Below are positions 23,926 to 44,329 of a stretch of 48,520 nt of DNA, one piece after another (the stretch's first letter is position 1; every line of letters starts with the position of its first letter). Under the pieces are notes generated by a model. That model searched no databases and was not told the DNA's origin. It worked only from the letters and a program-made list of their open reading frames with translations. The DNA comes from a virus (lineage: Duplodnaviria > Heunggongvirae > Uroviricota > Caudoviricetes): IMG/VR virus record IMGVR_UViG_2563366838_000005; one strand, 5' to 3'. The position numbers were made by a program, and so were the translations under genes.

Positions 23926-24187
23926 TGCATTAAGTCAAAACAACCCTTTAACGGAGCTGGCCGCGCTGTTAAGGGATGATGTCACCTTATCTTTGAAGCC
24001 GGACAGCATATTGCTGAACGATGAGTTTACCGCAGGTTTCTGGCTGGGAATCATTGACTGGAGTTAGGCCAGTAGTATGATGCTCGCAAAACGAGATCCA
24101 ATTTAGATCCTTTTACTGGTGGATTATCGTTCGATCAGTGAGAGACTTCGTGCATGACCGAAAGTGTTGTGGTAGAGTTCTCTTAAA

Positions 24188-24202
24188 ACCACGTAACGTG
24201 GT
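24188..24202. promoter_or_regulatory. ACCAC-N5-GTGGT palindromic operator upstream of repA
   Basis: accacgtaacgtggt; same palindrome family as in the cI/cro intergenic region. Confidence 0.4.
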
Positions 24203-24245
24203 TATGATTGTGGGTGTCTGGTTGGAAAGTGACCAGATATGGAAA

Positions 24246-29910: not shown

Positions 29911-29937
29911 AAGCGCCCAAATCGGGCGCTTTGTTTT
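29911..29937. terminator. Terminator hairpin between convergent genes
   Basis: agcgccc aaat cgggcgct followed by ttgtttt; sits between convergent stops at 29901 and 29936. Confidence 0.6.
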
Positions 29938-31087
29938 ATGGTTTTGCACCTGCGGCCAGTTTATCCGCAGATATTTTTATCAGTTCCTGTAGTGTCTTGG
30001 CTGGCAGGTTTGCATCCAGAACGCTGAGTATGCTGTTGTGATCAGCTTGGTCGACTACTTTGCCTGTCGGTGGTAGTAGCTTGAGCTGAGGATTCAGGTT
30101 TTCGTCAAAGCTGATAAGTGCTCTGGCGTTTCTGAGCAGATCAAGAAGTAAGGCTGATATCACATTTTCCTGAGTCATTGCTGGCAGATTTAGCACCGCT
30201 TTGGTTTTCCCTGTTGCCTTGTCAAACTCCTTGATTAGTTCCTTCCTGTAGTTCGGTTCCGTTAATAGCCGATTATGCTCTGTTGCCGCGCGGATAATCG
30301 TTTTTTCCTGGTACAGTCGTTTAGCCAGATCGCGCTCGTACTGTGTTTTTAACACGCTGCTGATAGCGTTAAAGGCTTCAATGTAGGCCAGCTTGATATC
30401 CTTCACGCCTGGACCGTCGATACTTTCCATGAGCAAGGTAAATCCGTCTTTTGTCATGCGATAGATTGTTATTTCGCGGTCGCTTCCTTCCAACGGTCGT
30501 TGCTCTTTAAAGAAATGACGCGCCGCAGCTGTGCGAGGAATGCGTAACGCATCGATGGCCATAACGATGGAATTGTTTGTGGTGCTGAATGCTTGGGCAA
30601 CATCGGCTGAGGTTGTGAGTGGCTCGTTGTTGCACACCTTAACGTAATACATTGGTTTGGCGTTGAGCGTATCGACAACCTCACGAGCATTGTTTGGTGA
30701 GACGGTTACGGTCGCGGCCGTTTGCGCGTTCTGGCTGAAATAGCAGTCTTCCAGCCGTTCGAACACATCCCACGCCTGATCGGTTTCGAGCATTTTAGCG
30801 TGACGTGCAGCCCCGCGTTCTGTCCAGAGGATGAGAGAGCGAGTTTTGGGGGAAATTTGTACCTCATTTTGTGACTCGTTTAAAACTAGTCGCAAATTTT
30901 TGAGTTCATCACCAACAGCTTTAAAGAAGTGCTTCCCCTCAATGAACCGAGTTTTATTTTCATGGTGATTTTGCTGTATACGGATTGCTTCTGTTCCATA
31001 AAGGCGGGCGAGTAGCTCAGTTGTGATTACTGGAATCTGATTATGCAGGATAGGCTGTAGGGTGTTAACGGTCCGAAGCGTTTTCAT
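29936..31087 (-). CDS. Phage antirepressor / regulatory protein (ORF6N-like N-terminus, Rha-like C-terminus)
   Basis: 383 aa; domain layout recalled from antirepressor families; start overlaps upstream small ORF. Confidence 0.65.
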   Translation of the reverse strand: MKTLRTVNTLQPILHNQIPVITTELLARLYGTEAIRIQQNHHENKTRFIEGKHFFKAVGDELKNLRLVLNESQNEVQISPKTRSLILWTERGAARHAKMLETDQAWDVFERLEDCYFSQNAQTAATVTVSPNNAREVVDTLNAKPMYYVKVCNNEPLTTSADVAQAFSTTNNSIVMAIDALRIPRTAAARHFFKEQRPLEGSDREITIYRMTKDGFTLLMESIDGPGVKDIKLAYIEAFNAISSVLKTQYERDLAKRLYQEKTIIRAATEHNRLLTEPNYRKELIKEFDKATGKTKAVLNLPAMTQENVISALLLDLLRNARALISFDENLNPQLKLLPPTGKVVDQADHNSILSVLDANLPAKTLQELIKISADKLAAGAKP

Positions 31088-31371
31088 TTTGCACCTCCCA
31101 TAACTACTTTGGTTACGAGGGAGATTTTTGCGTCAGAAACAGCGTTATCGTTGCTGGCGATGCGCATAGCTTCGCGCTCGATGATTTCAGCCAGGCGGAA
31201 TTTATCGGCGTATGAGGCTTTCTTGAGAAGGATCTTTACGAGATTGACGTAATAGTCATGGGGTAAGTTTGTCATGATGATAGTTCCAGTTTTGATATTG
31301 GAATAATCACCACCGCTGACGCCAATCAGTGAGGTGGTGAGACGTACAGGGTTGGCGTAACCGGTCATCAT
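31084..31371 (-). CDS. Hypothetical protein translationally coupled to antirepressor
   Basis: 95 aa ORF whose stop overlaps the antirepressor start. Confidence 0.45.
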   Translation of the reverse strand: MMTGYANPVRLTTSLIGVSGGDYSNIKTGTIIMTNLPHDYYVNLVKILLKKASYADKFRLAEIIEREAMRIASNDNAVSDAKISLVTKVVMGGAK

Positions 31372-31441
31372 GATACCCGGCGAGCCTTACGGCTCCCCCG
31401 CACGCCCCACCATAATTCGGGTGTAGCTGTGCTTTACGCAT

Positions 31442-31462
31442 AAAAAAACCGCTAACGCGGTA
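31442..31462 (-). terminator. Candidate minus-strand terminator in antirepressor operon leader
   Basis: On minus strand: 5 bp stem accgc/gcggt, 4 nt loop, then T7. Confidence 0.35.
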
Positions 31463-31608
31463 TGCGCCATGATGATTATCGGGACGCCAATCCCGACCGT
31501 AGATTTTGCTACGGCTCGGAAAGTGTCCACCAATGGCGCATTCATGTCAATACGGCAGGATTTTAACAGAGACAACCACATAGCGTGGGTTTATTGGTAG
31601 GCAGAAAC

Positions 31609-31635
31609 AAAAAAACCGCCCTATTGAGGACGGTT
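31609..31635 (-). terminator. Candidate minus-strand terminator in ORF-poor region
   Basis: On minus strand: 8 bp stem with one G-U pair, 6 nt loop, then T7. Confidence 0.45.
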
Positions 31636-32032
31636 CTTTCGTGCTGATCGGATTCGCGGTCCTTTCAGCATTACGTTGTTGTATAAACAACCACGCAAGC
31701 ACAAGCAGCAAGTTAATTTTACCCAAAAGGTAATAATAGTCCACTATTATGCTTCAAAAAATTGTGGTTCTTGTTGTGCCTGCAAACTCACAGATTGTGG
31801 GTAGGTTACTGATTTTGTGAAAATAAACGAGTTTTTTCGTTTAATTTCTTTCCTATTACTAATCTTAAAATAATCGTAAAATACCTGTGGACCTTCCCGC
31901 CGATTCGCACCCGGGCACCGACTTTAGGGGAGGATTCTCCGTTGCCGTACATGCAAGCACAAGCAGCCGTGCTTGCTCTCGCGTTGTTTTCGTCGGTGGG
32001 GATGCCGTGAAACGGCCTGTAAGGGCCATACA

Positions 32033-32155
32033 ATGAAAAAATACTGTATGTGTATTTTTATCGTTGTTACTGGGGCTTTGTTTACGCCACATGGGGAGGG
32101 TTGGAAGATTACTGATAACGCTCTGAATGTGACGATAAACATTAGCAGCAAGTAG
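32033..32155 (+). CDS. Candidate small hydrophobic peptide (40 aa)
   Basis: ATG 32033; hydrophobic core CMCIFIVVTGALF; strong terminator 6 nt after the stop; weak SD. Confidence 0.3.
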   Translation: MKKYCMCIFIVVTGALFTPHGEGWKITDNALNVTINISSK

Positions 32156-32160
32156 CGATT

Positions 32161-32185
32161 AGGCCCCTTCGGGGGCCTTTTTTTA
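32161..32185 (+). terminator. Rho-independent terminator
   Basis: aggcccc ttcg ggggcct followed by T7. Confidence 0.7.
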
Positions 32186-32194
32186 TGGCTGAAT

Positions 32195-32377
32195 TTAAAC
32201 GCTGGAGCGCATTAAGCCTTTCAGAACTGCTTCACGTACCCATTCTGGCCTGGTGGATAGCAGGGCAAATAAGCAGCCAGCTTGCAGCCGTTTGAGGTCG
32301 GTTAGACGAGTTTTCAGTAACCGTGTATATTGTTGCTCGGACATAACAAATTCCCCTTGTTGTGTCGCGACGGCCAA
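32195..32377 (-). CDS. Hypothetical small protein downstream of par genes
   Basis: 60 aa ORF only. Confidence 0.3.
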   Translation of the reverse strand: MAVATQQGEFVMSEQQYTRLLKTRLTDLKRLQAGCLFALLSTRPEWVREAVLKGLMRSSV

Positions 32378-32406: not shown

Positions 32407-32655
32407 TTACTTCTGGTTGTATTGAGCCTTGAGTAACTCAAAAGACTTTGTCAGCACTTCTTTCAATGACATATCCATTGAGCTGGCGAACGTTTTGTAC
32501 TCGCGTTTAAATTCAGGGTCGACGTTAAACGCCATTTGTGCCCCACCTGATTTGGTTCTGGTTGGCGTTTCAGTCGGGTCGAAAACCTGCGGTTGTTCGA
32601 TCGATGGCGGTACGCCTTTGCTGTTCTTCTTTGGTGGTTTTGATGGTGCGGCCAT
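32407..32655 (-). CDS. Partition protein, ParG-like ribbon-helix-helix
   Basis: 82 aa; C-terminal NVDPEFKREYKTFASSMDMSLKEVL resembles ParG RHH; immediately downstream of ParA. Confidence 0.65.
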   Translation of the reverse strand: MAAPSKPPKKNSKGVPPSIEQPQVFDPTETPTRTKSGGAQMAFNVDPEFKREYKTFASSMDMSLKEVLTKSFELLKAQYNQK

Positions 32656-32698: not shown

Positions 32699-33367
32699 TT
32701 ATGCGGCAGTAGTCAGAGCCTCAAGCTGGTTGATAATCCCCTGAATAACGTCGTCTGCCTTTTTGCGTGGCGCAACGTATGAGCACTCAATGAGGCTTAA
32801 GCCCTTATCCTGAGCTTTGCTCAGAGCTGGCTTGTGGGGAATGTACTTATCGACAACAAAGTATGGCGTATTAGCCAGGTACTCTTGGGCTTCAATATAG
32901 TCAGCTTCGTTTTCAGCCGCGCCGGAAAACACCATGCAAATTTTCTTGATTGGTACACCCTTTTTAACGATGCCGTGAGCAGTGTTAACGGTGGTTTCCA
33001 GGTCATCGGTAGAGAATCGGGTTGGCAAAATAACCATATCCAGAAATTCAGATAGCTTCGGTACTGATTCAGATGCGTAGGCACCGCCATCGACGATAAC
33101 CAGGTCGTATACTTCTGATTCGATGATTTTCTGGACTTGTGATGGTGTGCCGCACGGCTGCGCCGCGATTGCTGGTTCGATATTGTTGGCCATTCTGCGT
33201 TGTACCCAACGCGTTACCGTTCCGTTAAGCACATCCATATCGATCAGGCATACATTCCAGCCAGCCTTTGCATAAGCAACTGCTAAAGCACGGGCAATTG
33301 TTGATTTGGTTACGCCGCCTTTTCCGTTGAAAATACCTACAGAGATAGTCATTTGTCGAGACTCCAT
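32699..33367 (-). CDS. parA: Partition ATPase ParA (type Ib)
   Basis: 222 aa; deviant Walker A GIFNGKGGVTKST; paired with a small RHH protein. Confidence 0.85.
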   Translation of the reverse strand: MESRQMTISVGIFNGKGGVTKSTIARALAVAYAKAGWNVCLIDMDVLNGTVTRWVQRRMANNIEPAIAAQPCGTPSQVQKIIESEVYDLVIVDGGAYASESVPKLSEFLDMVILPTRFSTDDLETTVNTAHGIVKKGVPIKKICMVFSGAAENEADYIEAQEYLANTPYFVVDKYIPHKPALSKAQDKGLSLIECSYVAPRKKADDVIQGIINQLEALTTAA

Positions 33368-33877: not shown

Positions 33878-33912
33878 GCGTAGCCTCTTTTATACTTTTA
33901 CATGTTGTCAAA

Positions 33913-33927
33913 ACCACAAAATGTGGT
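33913..33927. promoter_or_regulatory. ACCAC-N5-GTGGT palindrome downstream of cI (operator and/or terminator)
   Basis: accacaaaatggtggt-type palindrome (accacaaaatgtggt) followed by T-run. Confidence 0.4.
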
Positions 33928-33969
33928 TTTTTTGAGCGTAGAAATGCACGGCTTTCGCCGTGCTGTGTA

Positions 33970-34626
33970 TCATAACCAGTTGACAACACTAACTACGCGG
34001 CCAAGAACTTTATAACGCTTAAATTCCTCGTTATTCAGATGCTTAGTGTTCATTTCAGCATCCCTTTCGGTTGACAGCATAACAGCATTGTCACCCGGTA
34101 TGACTCTACAGTGCCTCAAAACAACCAGGCCATTTCTGTCTTCAAGGGCATAGATCCCCTCATGAATCTCTGTATCGTCTGTATTAATCAGGACTTGGGA
34201 GCCTGGGGATATTGTTGGTGACATTAACTCATCGTTGCTCTGGAGAACTGACAGAGACGATGGGTTGATGTTCTTGCTTCGTAGAATCTCCTGTTCTATC
34301 GCCAGCACTGGCTTTTCTCCGGCGTGCGATGCTATGTCATTTTTTATAGCTACAAGCCCAGGAATAACAGGAGCGTTAGTATTCTGGGGTGGGAACGGGT
34401 TATCTGTTAAGCACGCGATATAAGGCGCTGATGCTTTCAGGGCGTGCGCGATTTTCTTGATGGCAGGTATAGATGGTTGTCTTAATCCGGCCTCATAGTT
34501 CTGCAAGGTGCTTAAGCCTATTCCAGTGACTTGCTGGAGATCTCCGGCAGTCATGCCGGATTGTTTCCGTAGAGTCTGAATGCGCAGACCTATTTCTTTC
34601 TTGATGTTCTCGTCGTTGCTTTTCAT
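33970..34626 (-). CDS. CI-like prophage repressor (N-terminal HTH, C-terminal S24 LexA-like peptidase domain)
   Basis: 218 aa; HTH GMTAGDLQQVTGIGLSTLQNYE; C-terminal domain with S24-like layout; divergent from Cro-like gene. Confidence 0.8.
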   Translation of the reverse strand: MKSNDENIKKEIGLRIQTLRKQSGMTAGDLQQVTGIGLSTLQNYEAGLRQPSIPAIKKIAHALKASAPYIACLTDNPFPPQNTNAPVIPGLVAIKNDIASHAGEKPVLAIEQEILRSKNINPSSLSVLQSNDELMSPTISPGSQVLINTDDTEIHEGIYALEDRNGLVVLRHCRVIPGDNAVMLSTERDAEMNTKHLNNEEFKRYKVLGRVVSVVNWL

Positions 34627-34800
34627 GTCTCATCAATCGTGAATGGTGGGTTATTTATACATTACCACATTTAGTGGTTTTCACATGGTAAGACGAGAGG
34701 TGGACCACAAATAGAAGGTTATTTTTTGTTTTGCCCATTGAAAAACTCACGATATGTGGTTTTAATACCACATATCGTGGTTTTAACTGGAGTTCGTTAA
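34627..34800. promoter_or_regulatory. Immunity-region operator/promoter region between cI and cro-like genes
   Basis: ACCAC-N5-GTGGT at 34664-34678 and 34767-34781, the latter within a 13 bp perfect inverted repeat (34748-34760 / 34767-34779). Confidence 0.55.
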
Positions 34801-44253: not shown

Positions 44254-44329
44254 GGCCCCTTAGCTCAGTGGTTAGAGCAGGCGACTCATAATCGCACGGT
44301 CATCGGTTCAAATCCGGTAGGGGCCACCA
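44254..44329 (+). tRNA. tRNA with CAU anticodon, most like tRNA-Ile2 (lysidine type); could be scored as tRNA-Met
   Basis: 76 nt cloverleaf with 7 bp acceptor stem, D-arm GCTC/GAGC, anticodon loop CTCATAA, T-loop TTCAAAT, encoded CCA; resembles E. coli ileX as recalled. Confidence 0.8.

Follow-up and report, generated by a model that had tools for sequence, protein, structure and literature searches.

Antirepressor-operon and timPR-type RNA genes very probably meet in a leader locus of a 48-kb phage-plasmid

The c4 RNA of bacteriophage P1 reportedly acts by translational repression followed by polarity, and is said to be processed by RNase P. In P1 and P7, c4 is needed besides C1 for shut-off of ant and pairs around the ribosome-binding region (PMC8198154, PMC12197685). 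In prophage Gifsy-1, the isrK promoter drives an isrK–orf45–anrP operon; transcription partially reads through the IsrK terminator and the resulting long RNA is translationally silent (PMC4825925). An RNA of ~80 nucleotides (nt), STnc1160, is processed from the orf45 region and depends on the isrK promoter, IsrK pairs with the orf45 region and in trans activates anrP translation, and translation is coupled to the antirepressor through an AUGA overlap (PMC4825925). Published models treat the upstream RNA that carries the a1 and b1 sequences as an unexplained extra target in P1 and as an activator in Gifsy-1 (PMC4825925 for the latter). The timPR toxin–antitoxin system is a further described RNA-based system (mechanism in PMC7667032, PMC11228461 and PMC13000454): TimR is encoded divergently from timP, ends at an intrinsic terminator and pairs through its 5′ end with ~18 nt of stem-loop 2 (SL2) of the timP 5′ untranslated region (UTR), more than 60 nt from the ribosome-binding site (PMC7667032, PMC11228461). 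Here we analyse a stretch of 48,520 nt, IMG/VR record IMGVR_UViG_2563366838_000005 (hereafter the window), which is a ~48-kb phage-plasmid, and in it the interval 31372–32030, upstream of an ORF6N/Rha antirepressor gene.

With high probability, this interval is the junction of two independent RNA-based modules, an immI-type antirepressor operon and a timPR toxin–antitoxin pair. The two-module reading is based on family membership, anatomy, complementarity and covariation. The whole window was scanned with Rfam at gathering thresholds, and separately with a permissive scan below them. Three families exceed their thresholds at the locus: C4 antisense RNA, IsrK and ryfA. Covariance and structure prediction, which the sequence-only reading had named as a check, came out in favour of RNA genes, the folds included, and its impression of a region poor in open reading frames (ORFs) was borne out, as no ORF in 31372–32030 has family support. 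Weak matches from the permissive scan (RNAI, Phe_leader, PhrS and others) fell far under thresholds and were set aside as generic hairpin-plus-terminator resemblance. All four RNAs (IsrK, C4, a TimR-like small RNA (sRNA) and the timP mRNA) belong to described families, and no mechanism here is new in kind; the novelty is modest, namely that a mobile element carries a timPR that is divergent and unannotated. The four RNA genes are unannotated in every phage or plasmid record examined. In the literature searched, no paper joined ryfA/timPR to phage-plasmids, nor did any deal with the Yersinia phages vB_YpM_39/41/44, although absence there is not proof.

The first module lies on the minus strand and comprises the following features.

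29936–31087, minus strand: antirepressor gene, 383 amino acids (aa), ORF6N and Phage_pRha (Pfam, PHROGs).
31084–31275, minus strand: 63-aa ORF (MTNLPHDYY...), at the position of P1 icd (PHROG 7886, annotation of relatives).
31272–31280, minus strand: a2, target UCAUCAUGA of the C4 a′ loop, covering the AUG at 31275–31273 (sequence, covariation).
31319–31325, minus strand: b2, target UUGGCGU of C4 b′, in a small hairpin loop (sequence, covariation, fold).
31330–31417, minus strand: C4 antisense RNA gene (Rfam RF01695).
31442–31515, minus strand: IsrK-type leader sRNA, 74 nt, with b1, a1 and an intrinsic terminator (Rfam RF01394).
31522–31550, minus strand: putative isrK promoter, −35 TTGACA at 31550–31545, 17-nt spacer, −10 GACACT at 31527–31522, start at ~31515 (sequence).
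31560–31568, minus strand: candidate extended −10, TGTTAAAAT, whose −35 position is overlapped by the next feature.
31574–31588, no strand assigned: CCAC-N5-GTGGTT motif, 24 bp upstream of the isrK −35 (motif count).

The C4 gene matches its Rfam model over its full length (positions 1–87 of 87), scoring 81 bits where the gathering score is 45 (E = 2e-14). In its minimum-free-energy fold (z = −5.3), a long stem closes the structure around two inner hairpins; the fold places a′ GUAUCAUGAUGA (31376–31365) in a hairpin loop and b′ ACGCCAA (31358–31352) in a single-stranded stretch. Within the loop, UCAUGAUGA pairs with a2 UCAUCAUGA, and b′ pairs with b2 UUGGCGU. The isrK match is likewise complete (positions 1–77 of 77; 70.9 bits against 50) and has a three-hairpin fold, in which b1 UUGGCGU (31490–31484) occupies the loop of hairpin 2 and a1 UCAUCAUG lies at 31475–31468; both are complementary to the a′ and b′ elements of C4. 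The end of isrK and the start of C4 are 24 nt apart, and in all relatives scanned with Rfam, Gifsy-1 included, C4 comes directly after isrK. Of the two minus-strand terminators that had been proposed, the one at 31442–31462 consists of a G+C stem (31461–31448) and a run of seven Ts (31447–31441), and is listed by a simple promoter/terminator scanner. We assign it to IsrK because the Rfam match, 31515–31442, ends there. The same scanner missed the isrK promoter and the second terminator (31635–31609, described below), both of which were read from sequence and folds. The Gifsy-1 isrK promoter region can be aligned with the one here, and the first position of the Rfam isrK model corresponds to 31515. 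The operon leader is accordingly ~240 nt long (31515 to 31275), rather than 650 nt as first thought. Control of the antirepressor operon by a c4-like sRNA and/or attenuation, as the sequence-only reading had suggested, agrees with this anatomy: a C4 gene lies directly upstream and the IsrK terminator in the leader is attenuator-like. The sRNA gene had, however, been sought inside the interval, whereas C4 lies mostly outside it, within the supposed start of a 95-aa ORF.

The elements of C4 and its targets vary together. Twelve sequences were aligned; among them are seven relatives from phage-plasmids, an Stx2c phage, two further lambdoid phages and Gifsy-1, and a Yersinia phage is also represented. 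In this alignment the a′/b′ elements vary in step with a1/b1 and with a2/b2, and no reading frame survives the 1-nt indels. For example, b′ reads ACGCCAA, GTTCCAA or AGGCTAA where b1 and b2 both read TTGGCGT, TTGGAAC or TTAGCCT, respectively. A pattern scan of IMG/VR for this C4 subtype returned 120 contigs, which gave 93 distinct leaders with 38 combinations of a′ and b′. A Watson–Crick run of at least 7 with the C4 of the same locus was found for b1 in 93 of 93 leaders (71 of 930 after swapping loci), for b2 in 93 of 93 (75 of 930 swapped) and for a2 in 85 of 93 (40 of 930 swapped). A terminator with a T-run precedes C4 in 92 of the 93, at a median distance of 25 nt. One 79.8-kb relative (L090; IMGVR_UViG_3300036772_000294) has a further pair of C4-family genes in tandem at 1324–1501, upstream of its isrK promoter. 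Their a′ and b′ differ, they are additional to the operon's own C4, and a 68%-identical timPR lies ~5 kb away; these extra genes may give extra immunity specificities.

Downstream of C4, the antirepressor matches ORF6N (4.7e-20) and Phage_pRha (3.8e-12) in Pfam as well as anti-repressor families in PHROGs. The preceding ORF had been read as 95 aa, but its ATG at 31371 falls inside the C4 a′ loop, the C4 gene overlaps its first 14 codons, and the ORF with support is the 63-aa one from 31275. This shorter ORF is matched by phrog_7886, a family without known function, over positions 1–63 of 63 (E = 2e-47) and is annotated as a 192-bp coding sequence in five relatives (RefSeq/GenBank). Upstream of the ATG at 31275, relatives in the 12-sequence alignment differ by frame-breaking 1-nt indels. 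The 95-aa ORF is thus probably mis-started, with 31275 as the true start. An ATGA overlap (31087–31084) joins the 63-aa stop to the antirepressor start, with GGGAGGTG just upstream, which suggests translational coupling of the two genes. A tblastn search of the 63-aa ORF against 50,697 phage records found three Yersinia phages only, and no functional name came from the tblastn, PHROGs or NCBIfam searches.

A protein-coding explanation of 31275–31581 would make it an 'Ash family protein', composed of the 95-aa ORF (31371–31084) and a frameshifted 64-aa ORF (31581–31387). Pfam Phage_ASH (PF10554; cutoff 26 bits) indeed scores 26.1 bits on residues 2–39 of the 95-aa ORF and also has a weak match to the 64-aa ORF, and for some plasmids RefSeq names the 288-bp ORF 'ash family protein'. 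However, the Pfam match is confined to translated C4/isrK RNA, is spread over two frames and stops short of the conserved 63-aa part. Relatives vary in this stretch through 1-nt indels and through changes that keep RNA pairing rather than codons, the C4 and isrK covariance models score above their thresholds, and both PHROG 7886 and five RefSeq records begin at the internal ATG. In Gifsy-1, the equivalent orf45 is conserved in nucleotides and variable in amino acids (PMC4825925). We therefore regard a protein-coding origin as highly improbable; the Pfam Phage_ASH family may itself be largely a translation of C4/IsrK RNA genes.

Set beside immI of P1 and P7, the RNA-based operon proposed here shows the same arrangement in several respects. 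A C4-family RNA lies in the operon leader, its a′ and b′ are exposed and have one set of targets upstream (a1/b1) and another where translation of the first small ORF starts (a2/b2), this small first ORF is predicted to be coupled to the antirepressor gene, and the element is a plasmid prophage. The specificity variants of a′/b′ (the 38 combinations) are comparable to the heteroimmunity of P1 and P7. By contrast, the antirepressor is of the ORF6N/Rha type and not Ant1/2, the 63-aa ORF is not detectably Icd-like, a2 covers the start codon itself, and an intrinsic IsrK-type terminator stands between a1/b1 and C4. Owing to this terminator, a1 and b1 would reside on a discrete sRNA.

The same comparison with Gifsy-1 isrK–orf45–anrP shows an identical order of promoter, IsrK with terminator, C4-family RNA and antirepressor. 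The Rfam families C4, isrK and c4-a1b1 occur at equivalent positions, the C4 region is 86% identical (megablast) and the AUGA coupling is shared; the STnc1160 region of Gifsy-1 is, by our identification, the C4 homologue. The two loci differ in that a2 of Gifsy-1 overlaps the anrP Shine–Dalgarno sequence and orf45 runs through C4, whereas the equivalent AUG in the window (AUGGUGGGG..., 31412) meets a UAA after 8 codons and C4 would target a separate 63-aa ORF, a layout nearer to that of P1. The antQ and isrJ neighbours are absent here, and the element is a plasmid prophage rather than an integrated lambdoid one.

Drawing on characterised homologues for C4 processing and for the direction of regulation, we propose the following working of the operon (minus strand, ~31550 to 29936). 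Transcription would begin at ~31515 from the promoter near 31550–31522. A fraction of transcripts would end at the IsrK terminator (31441) and yield the 74-nt sRNA with b1 and a1, while the others would read through into the C4 RNA (31417–31330), the 63-aa ORF and the antirepressor gene. As in P1 and Gifsy-1, the read-through transcript would probably be processed to release C4, whose b′ and a′ would pair with b2 (31325–31319) and a2 (31280–31272). Initiation at the 63-aa ORF would be blocked in this way and, through the ATGA coupling, so would antirepressor synthesis; polarity dependent on Rho may contribute. As IsrK bears the same target sequences, it may act as a competitor for C4, either as the free RNA or within the long transcript, and tilt the balance towards expression. 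The sign of this IsrK effect is uncertain.

An opposite arrangement would be a cis antisense RNA transcribed from the plus strand across the site of ribosome binding, either at the first ORF or at the antirepressor gene. Phage P22, with sar, is the classical precedent for antisense control of an antirepressor. In the window, no plus-strand promoter-like or terminator-like site was listed by the scanner in 31000–31450, the only plus-strand Rfam match there is at chance level (E = 4.2), and the trans-acting C4 design is fully present. A sar-type RNA is thus exceedingly unlikely.

The CCAC-N5-GTGGTT motif upstream of the isrK promoter, recognised by reading the cI–cro sequence, matches the window 7 times, at 6 places, where 0.06 matches are expected (31574–31588, 24187–24203, 33912–33928, 34665–34679 and 34748–34782). 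The cI–cro interval accounts for three of the places and the stretch just downstream of cI for another; from these positions, the motif is probably an operator of the prophage repressor. The copy at 31574–31588 may be functionally tied to the adjoining promoter. The operator-like motif and the candidate extended −10 beside the isrK promoter recall the pair of C1-controlled and constitutive promoters of P1 immI. No LexA box (CTG-N10-CAG) was seen by eye near the isrK promoter, and k-mers common to the isrK promoter region and the cI–cro region revealed nothing useful.

The P4 CI RNA (seqA/seqB/seqC) is similar in that a small RNA is processed from its own operon leader and has complementary targets upstream and downstream. 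The CA RNA of N15 immA is reportedly also a leader-processed small RNA with complementary targets on both sides. Unlike the proposed action of C4, the P4 CI and N15 CA RNAs act mainly by premature transcription termination. The P4 analogy is also drawn by the authors of the Gifsy-1 study (PMC4825925).

The second module occupies 31605–32183 and is divergently transcribed. Its features are as follows.

31605–31709, minus strand: TimR-like antitoxin sRNA, ~100 nt (alignment with K-12 timR, fold z = −5.9).
31716–31743, minus strand: TimR promoter-like site, −35 TGGACT, 16-nt spacer, −10 TAAAAT, 9 of 12 matches (scanner).
31877–31882, plus strand: putative −10-like TAAAAT for timP (sequence).
31887–32183, plus strand: timP toxin mRNA of the ryfA family, ~300 nt (Rfam RF00126).
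31950–31967, plus strand: predicted TimR-binding site in stem-loop 2 of the timP 5′ UTR, containing direct-repeat copy 2 (31953–31967) (pairing search).
32033–32155, plus strand: TimP-like small membrane protein ORF, 40 aa, MKKYCMCIFIVVTGALFTPHGEGWKITDNALNVTINISSK (profile, alignment).
32161–32178, plus strand: timP terminator, followed by a T-run (scanner).

The ryfA match covers model positions 1–296 of 296 with 141.8 bits against a gathering score of 80; relatives score 134–162 bits and K-12 scores 315 bits. The TimP-like ORF aligns with K-12 TimP and is conserved in 10 loci, where indels are in frame. On the opposite strand, the TimR-like sRNA can be aligned with annotated K-12 timR (b4811), with which it has a three-hairpin architecture in common. 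Its 5′ terminus, GCUGCUUGUGCUUGCGUG, corresponds to direct-repeat copy 1 in reverse complement. The promoter-like site at 31743–31716 places the start at ~31709, which is the first base of the complementary stretch. The sRNA ends in the second of the two proposed terminators, which exists as described (31609–31635): a hairpin AACCGUCC/GGGCGGUU (31635–31614) is followed by a run of seven Ts to 31609, as seen in the sequence and in the fold of 31709–31605 (z = −5.9). Among relatives, the TimR-like body is nearly invariant, whereas the adjoining promoter spacer is highly diverged and almost unalignable. A 7-bp candidate in timP for the SL1–SL3 pseudoknot that timPR systems need for translation, CCGCCGA/UCGGUGG, was noted by eye; no claim is made for it.

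The 15-nt direct repeat GCAAGCACAAGCAGC noted earlier does have exactly two plus-strand copies, although these lie at 31695–31709 and 31953–31967 instead of 31697 and 31954. With up to 2 mismatches, the window holds 3 matches against 0.2 expected. In a contiguous-pairing search, TimR nt 1–18 pair with timP mRNA nt 64–81, 66 nt before the ATG (nt 147). K-12 shows the same geometry, with TimR nt 1–19 pairing with nt 64–82 and the ATG likewise at nt 147. RNAduplex on the full-length TimR and timP had returned uninformative long-range structure, and the contiguous-pairing search was used instead. Across relatives, 97.9% of the cells in the TimR–timP duplex are paired and 7 of 19 pairs have changed on both sides, which none of 500 shuffles reached. 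Both copies of the repeat change together, and the 68%-identical timPR of L090 (an 80-kb viral contig) has six compensatory changes in the pairing. All one-sided differences give G–U pairs, the sole exceptions being two cells at the stretch's ends that are unpaired. The repeat and the terminator at 31609–31635, which had been proposed as antirepressor control elements, therefore belong to the TimR-like sRNA, as its targeting 5′ end and its terminator.

This covariation also bears on whether the two GCAAGCACAAGCAGC copies could be DNA sites (iterons or operators) for a single maintenance or immunity protein. They are identical direct repeats 258 bp apart beside partition genes, and concerted change would also be expected if sites co-evolve with one binding protein. 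However, copy 2 sits exactly where the proven TimR site lies in ryfA (nt 64–81, SL2; PMC7667032), and copy 1 coincides with the exact 5′ end of the TimR homologue. The copies differ only in the direction that gives G–U pairs, bar the two end cells, an asymmetry that would be meaningless for DNA binding and so argues against protein sites. No third copy of GCAAGCACAAGCAGC occurs elsewhere in the window. We consider DNA sites to be most improbable, and take the repeat to be an RNA–RNA pairing element.

In the proposed working of this module, the plus strand would give a ~300-nt timP mRNA encoding a 40-aa membrane toxin, and the divergent minus strand a ~100-nt TimR-like sRNA. Nucleotides 1–18 of the sRNA would bind stem-loop 2 of timP, 66 nt upstream of the ATG, and thereby prevent translation. 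Toxicity of TimP is expected by analogy with characterised homologues. As timPR adjoins the partition genes, it would most likely serve as a maintenance (addiction) module of the plasmid prophage. The pairing sequences of the plasmid and of K-12 differ, and host TimR should therefore not neutralise plasmid timP, so that no cross-protection is expected. The timP terminator is not bidirectional, and read-through from the partition operon would consequently run antisense to timP until the TimR terminator.

Compared with chromosomal timPR, the module has a candidate TimP ORF of 40 aa (41 aa in K-12) with a like hydrophobic N terminus and the ATG at nt 147, and shares a divergent sRNA of ~100 nt with the same hairpins, a 5′ end directed at SL2 and an intrinsic terminator. 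It differs in lying beside partition genes on a phage-plasmid, rather than between sseA and sseB, and in its pairing sequence. It is also strongly diverged (142 against 315 bits for ryfA and 23 against 87 bits for TimP, relative to K-12). The spacer between the two genes is 178 bp here and 400 bp in K-12, where the timR–ryfA spacer (L132, 3357–4159) holds the IS128 RNA (Rfam, 261 bits); no IS128 RNA is present here, and the phage-plasmid spacer is the most variable stretch among relatives. Plasmid R1's hok/sok pair is another type I module near maintenance functions, with a small membrane toxin and an antisense sRNA (cited in PMC13000454). The likeness lies in the placement of a type I module on an extrachromosomal replicon near maintenance functions, from which post-segregational killing might be expected here too. 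The family is a different one, however: hok mRNA requires processing at its 3′ end and is overlapped in cis by sok, whereas timP works without processing and TimR is encoded in trans.

The timPR segment was found by blastn in 72 of 5,426 complete E. coli genomes (~1.3%), and 73 of its 74 places are on plasmids. From this distribution, blastn (in 'distant' mode) seems not to reach chromosomal ryfA, and the link to ryfA rests on covariance models, profile models and pairwise alignment instead. The single chromosomal place may be an integrated copy of the element. A scan of genome contigs for the TimR core of the mobile clade gave one species representative only, a Buttiauxella metagenome-assembled genome; the timPR records otherwise come from Escherichia, Klebsiella, Salmonella and Yersinia.

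The independence of the modules is seen in relatives that are interrupted between them. Three (L001, L005 and L007; a Yersinia phage, the 48-kb plasmid NZ_CP009073.1 of E. coli ATCC 25922 and pO145_122715_2 are the carriers) have an insertion of ~0.7 kb at a point equivalent to window positions 31592–31600, between the TimR terminator and the isrK promoter, with both sides conserved. It contains one regulator gene.

L001 4720–5292, L005 1953–2525 and L007 1956–2528, plus strand: inserted 573-bp helix-turn-helix (HTH)/XRE regulator gene.

These insertions bear directly on the original proposal of one ~650-nt minus-strand leader starting at ~32030, with two successive attenuators and the direct repeat as a recognition element. 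Such a leader would account for two terminators that are both on the operon strand and upstream of the operon, with no supported protein gene between them, and read-through from the partition genes, which share the minus strand and lie further upstream, could cross the region. But in the relatives a 573-bp plus-strand gene separates the two terminators with the operon side otherwise unchanged, the upstream terminator closes a TimR homologue with its own promoter-like site, and the repeat copies co-vary as a duplex with a plus-strand mRNA of a known family. Furthermore, the promoter region that immediately precedes isrK can be aligned with its Gifsy-1 counterpart, and there the operon is driven by PisrK (PMC4825925). 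A single leader is accordingly very unlikely, and ~31605–32183 is better described as a separate, divergently transcribed timR/timP module.

Several points weigh against the reading of two modules of known families. NCBIfam toxic_TimP (NF040796) spans positions 1–40 of 40 of the TimP-like ORF (E = 7e-5) with only 23 bits, under the cutoff of 45, which is why annotation pipelines skip this ORF. Most timPR relatives are close kin, and only five distinct rows carry the covariation count. In the permissive scan, c4-a1b1 (RF03163) covers 31528–31476 at 41 bits, below its threshold of 46.7, whereas the homologous Gifsy-1 site passes over isrK with 48.1 bits. The isrK −10 (GACACT) is weak, and the promoter went unlisted by the scanner because that −10 matches at only 3 of 6 positions. 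Neither tblastn nor PHROGs detected any similarity between the 63-aa ORF and P1 Icd. The uncertainty over the sign of the IsrK effect also counts here, since the P1 and Gifsy-1 models disagree on the upstream a1/b1 RNA.

A broader joint reading, which we put forward tentatively and with somewhat more doubt than belief, is that timPR is the first mobile member of its family, orthogonal to host timPR and acting as an addiction or possibly abortive-infection module, and that IsrK and C4 form one three-RNA switch. If so, IsrK (a1/b1) would titrate C4, uniting the accounts of P1 c4 as a repressor and Gifsy-1 IsrK as an activator, and dozens of a′/b′ specificity classes would define a cross-immunity network among prophages and phage-plasmids. 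For annotation, the locus is at present partly labelled as protein ('ash family protein') with the start of the first ORF inside an RNA loop, and correcting this alters the reading of phage-plasmid immunity regions. For biology, a widespread E. coli phage-plasmid probably silences its antirepressor by an RNA switch with interchangeable specificity. For maintenance, an orthogonal copy of a toxin–antitoxin system so far studied only on chromosomes provides a natural test case for a maintenance function of timPR.

The locus is 91% identical to vB_YpM_41/44/39, which are circular 49-kb Yersinia phages, and 81–100% identical to 47–49-kb non-mobilizable plasmids of E. coli, E. fergusonii, E. albertii, Klebsiella and Salmonella. 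To its right lie the following genes.

32195–32377, minus strand: small ORF, 60 aa, with a weak PHROG match only, between timP and parA.
32407–32655, minus strand: small ORF, 82 aa, with a phrog_6024 match, between timP and parA.
32699–33367, minus strand: ParA-type partition gene.
33970–34626, minus strand: HTH and S24-peptidase repressor gene.

The 82-aa ORF (32407–32655) is probably the partner of ParA. Elsewhere in the window, a tRNA gene is present at 44254–44326 on the plus strand (Rfam tRNA, 67 bits).

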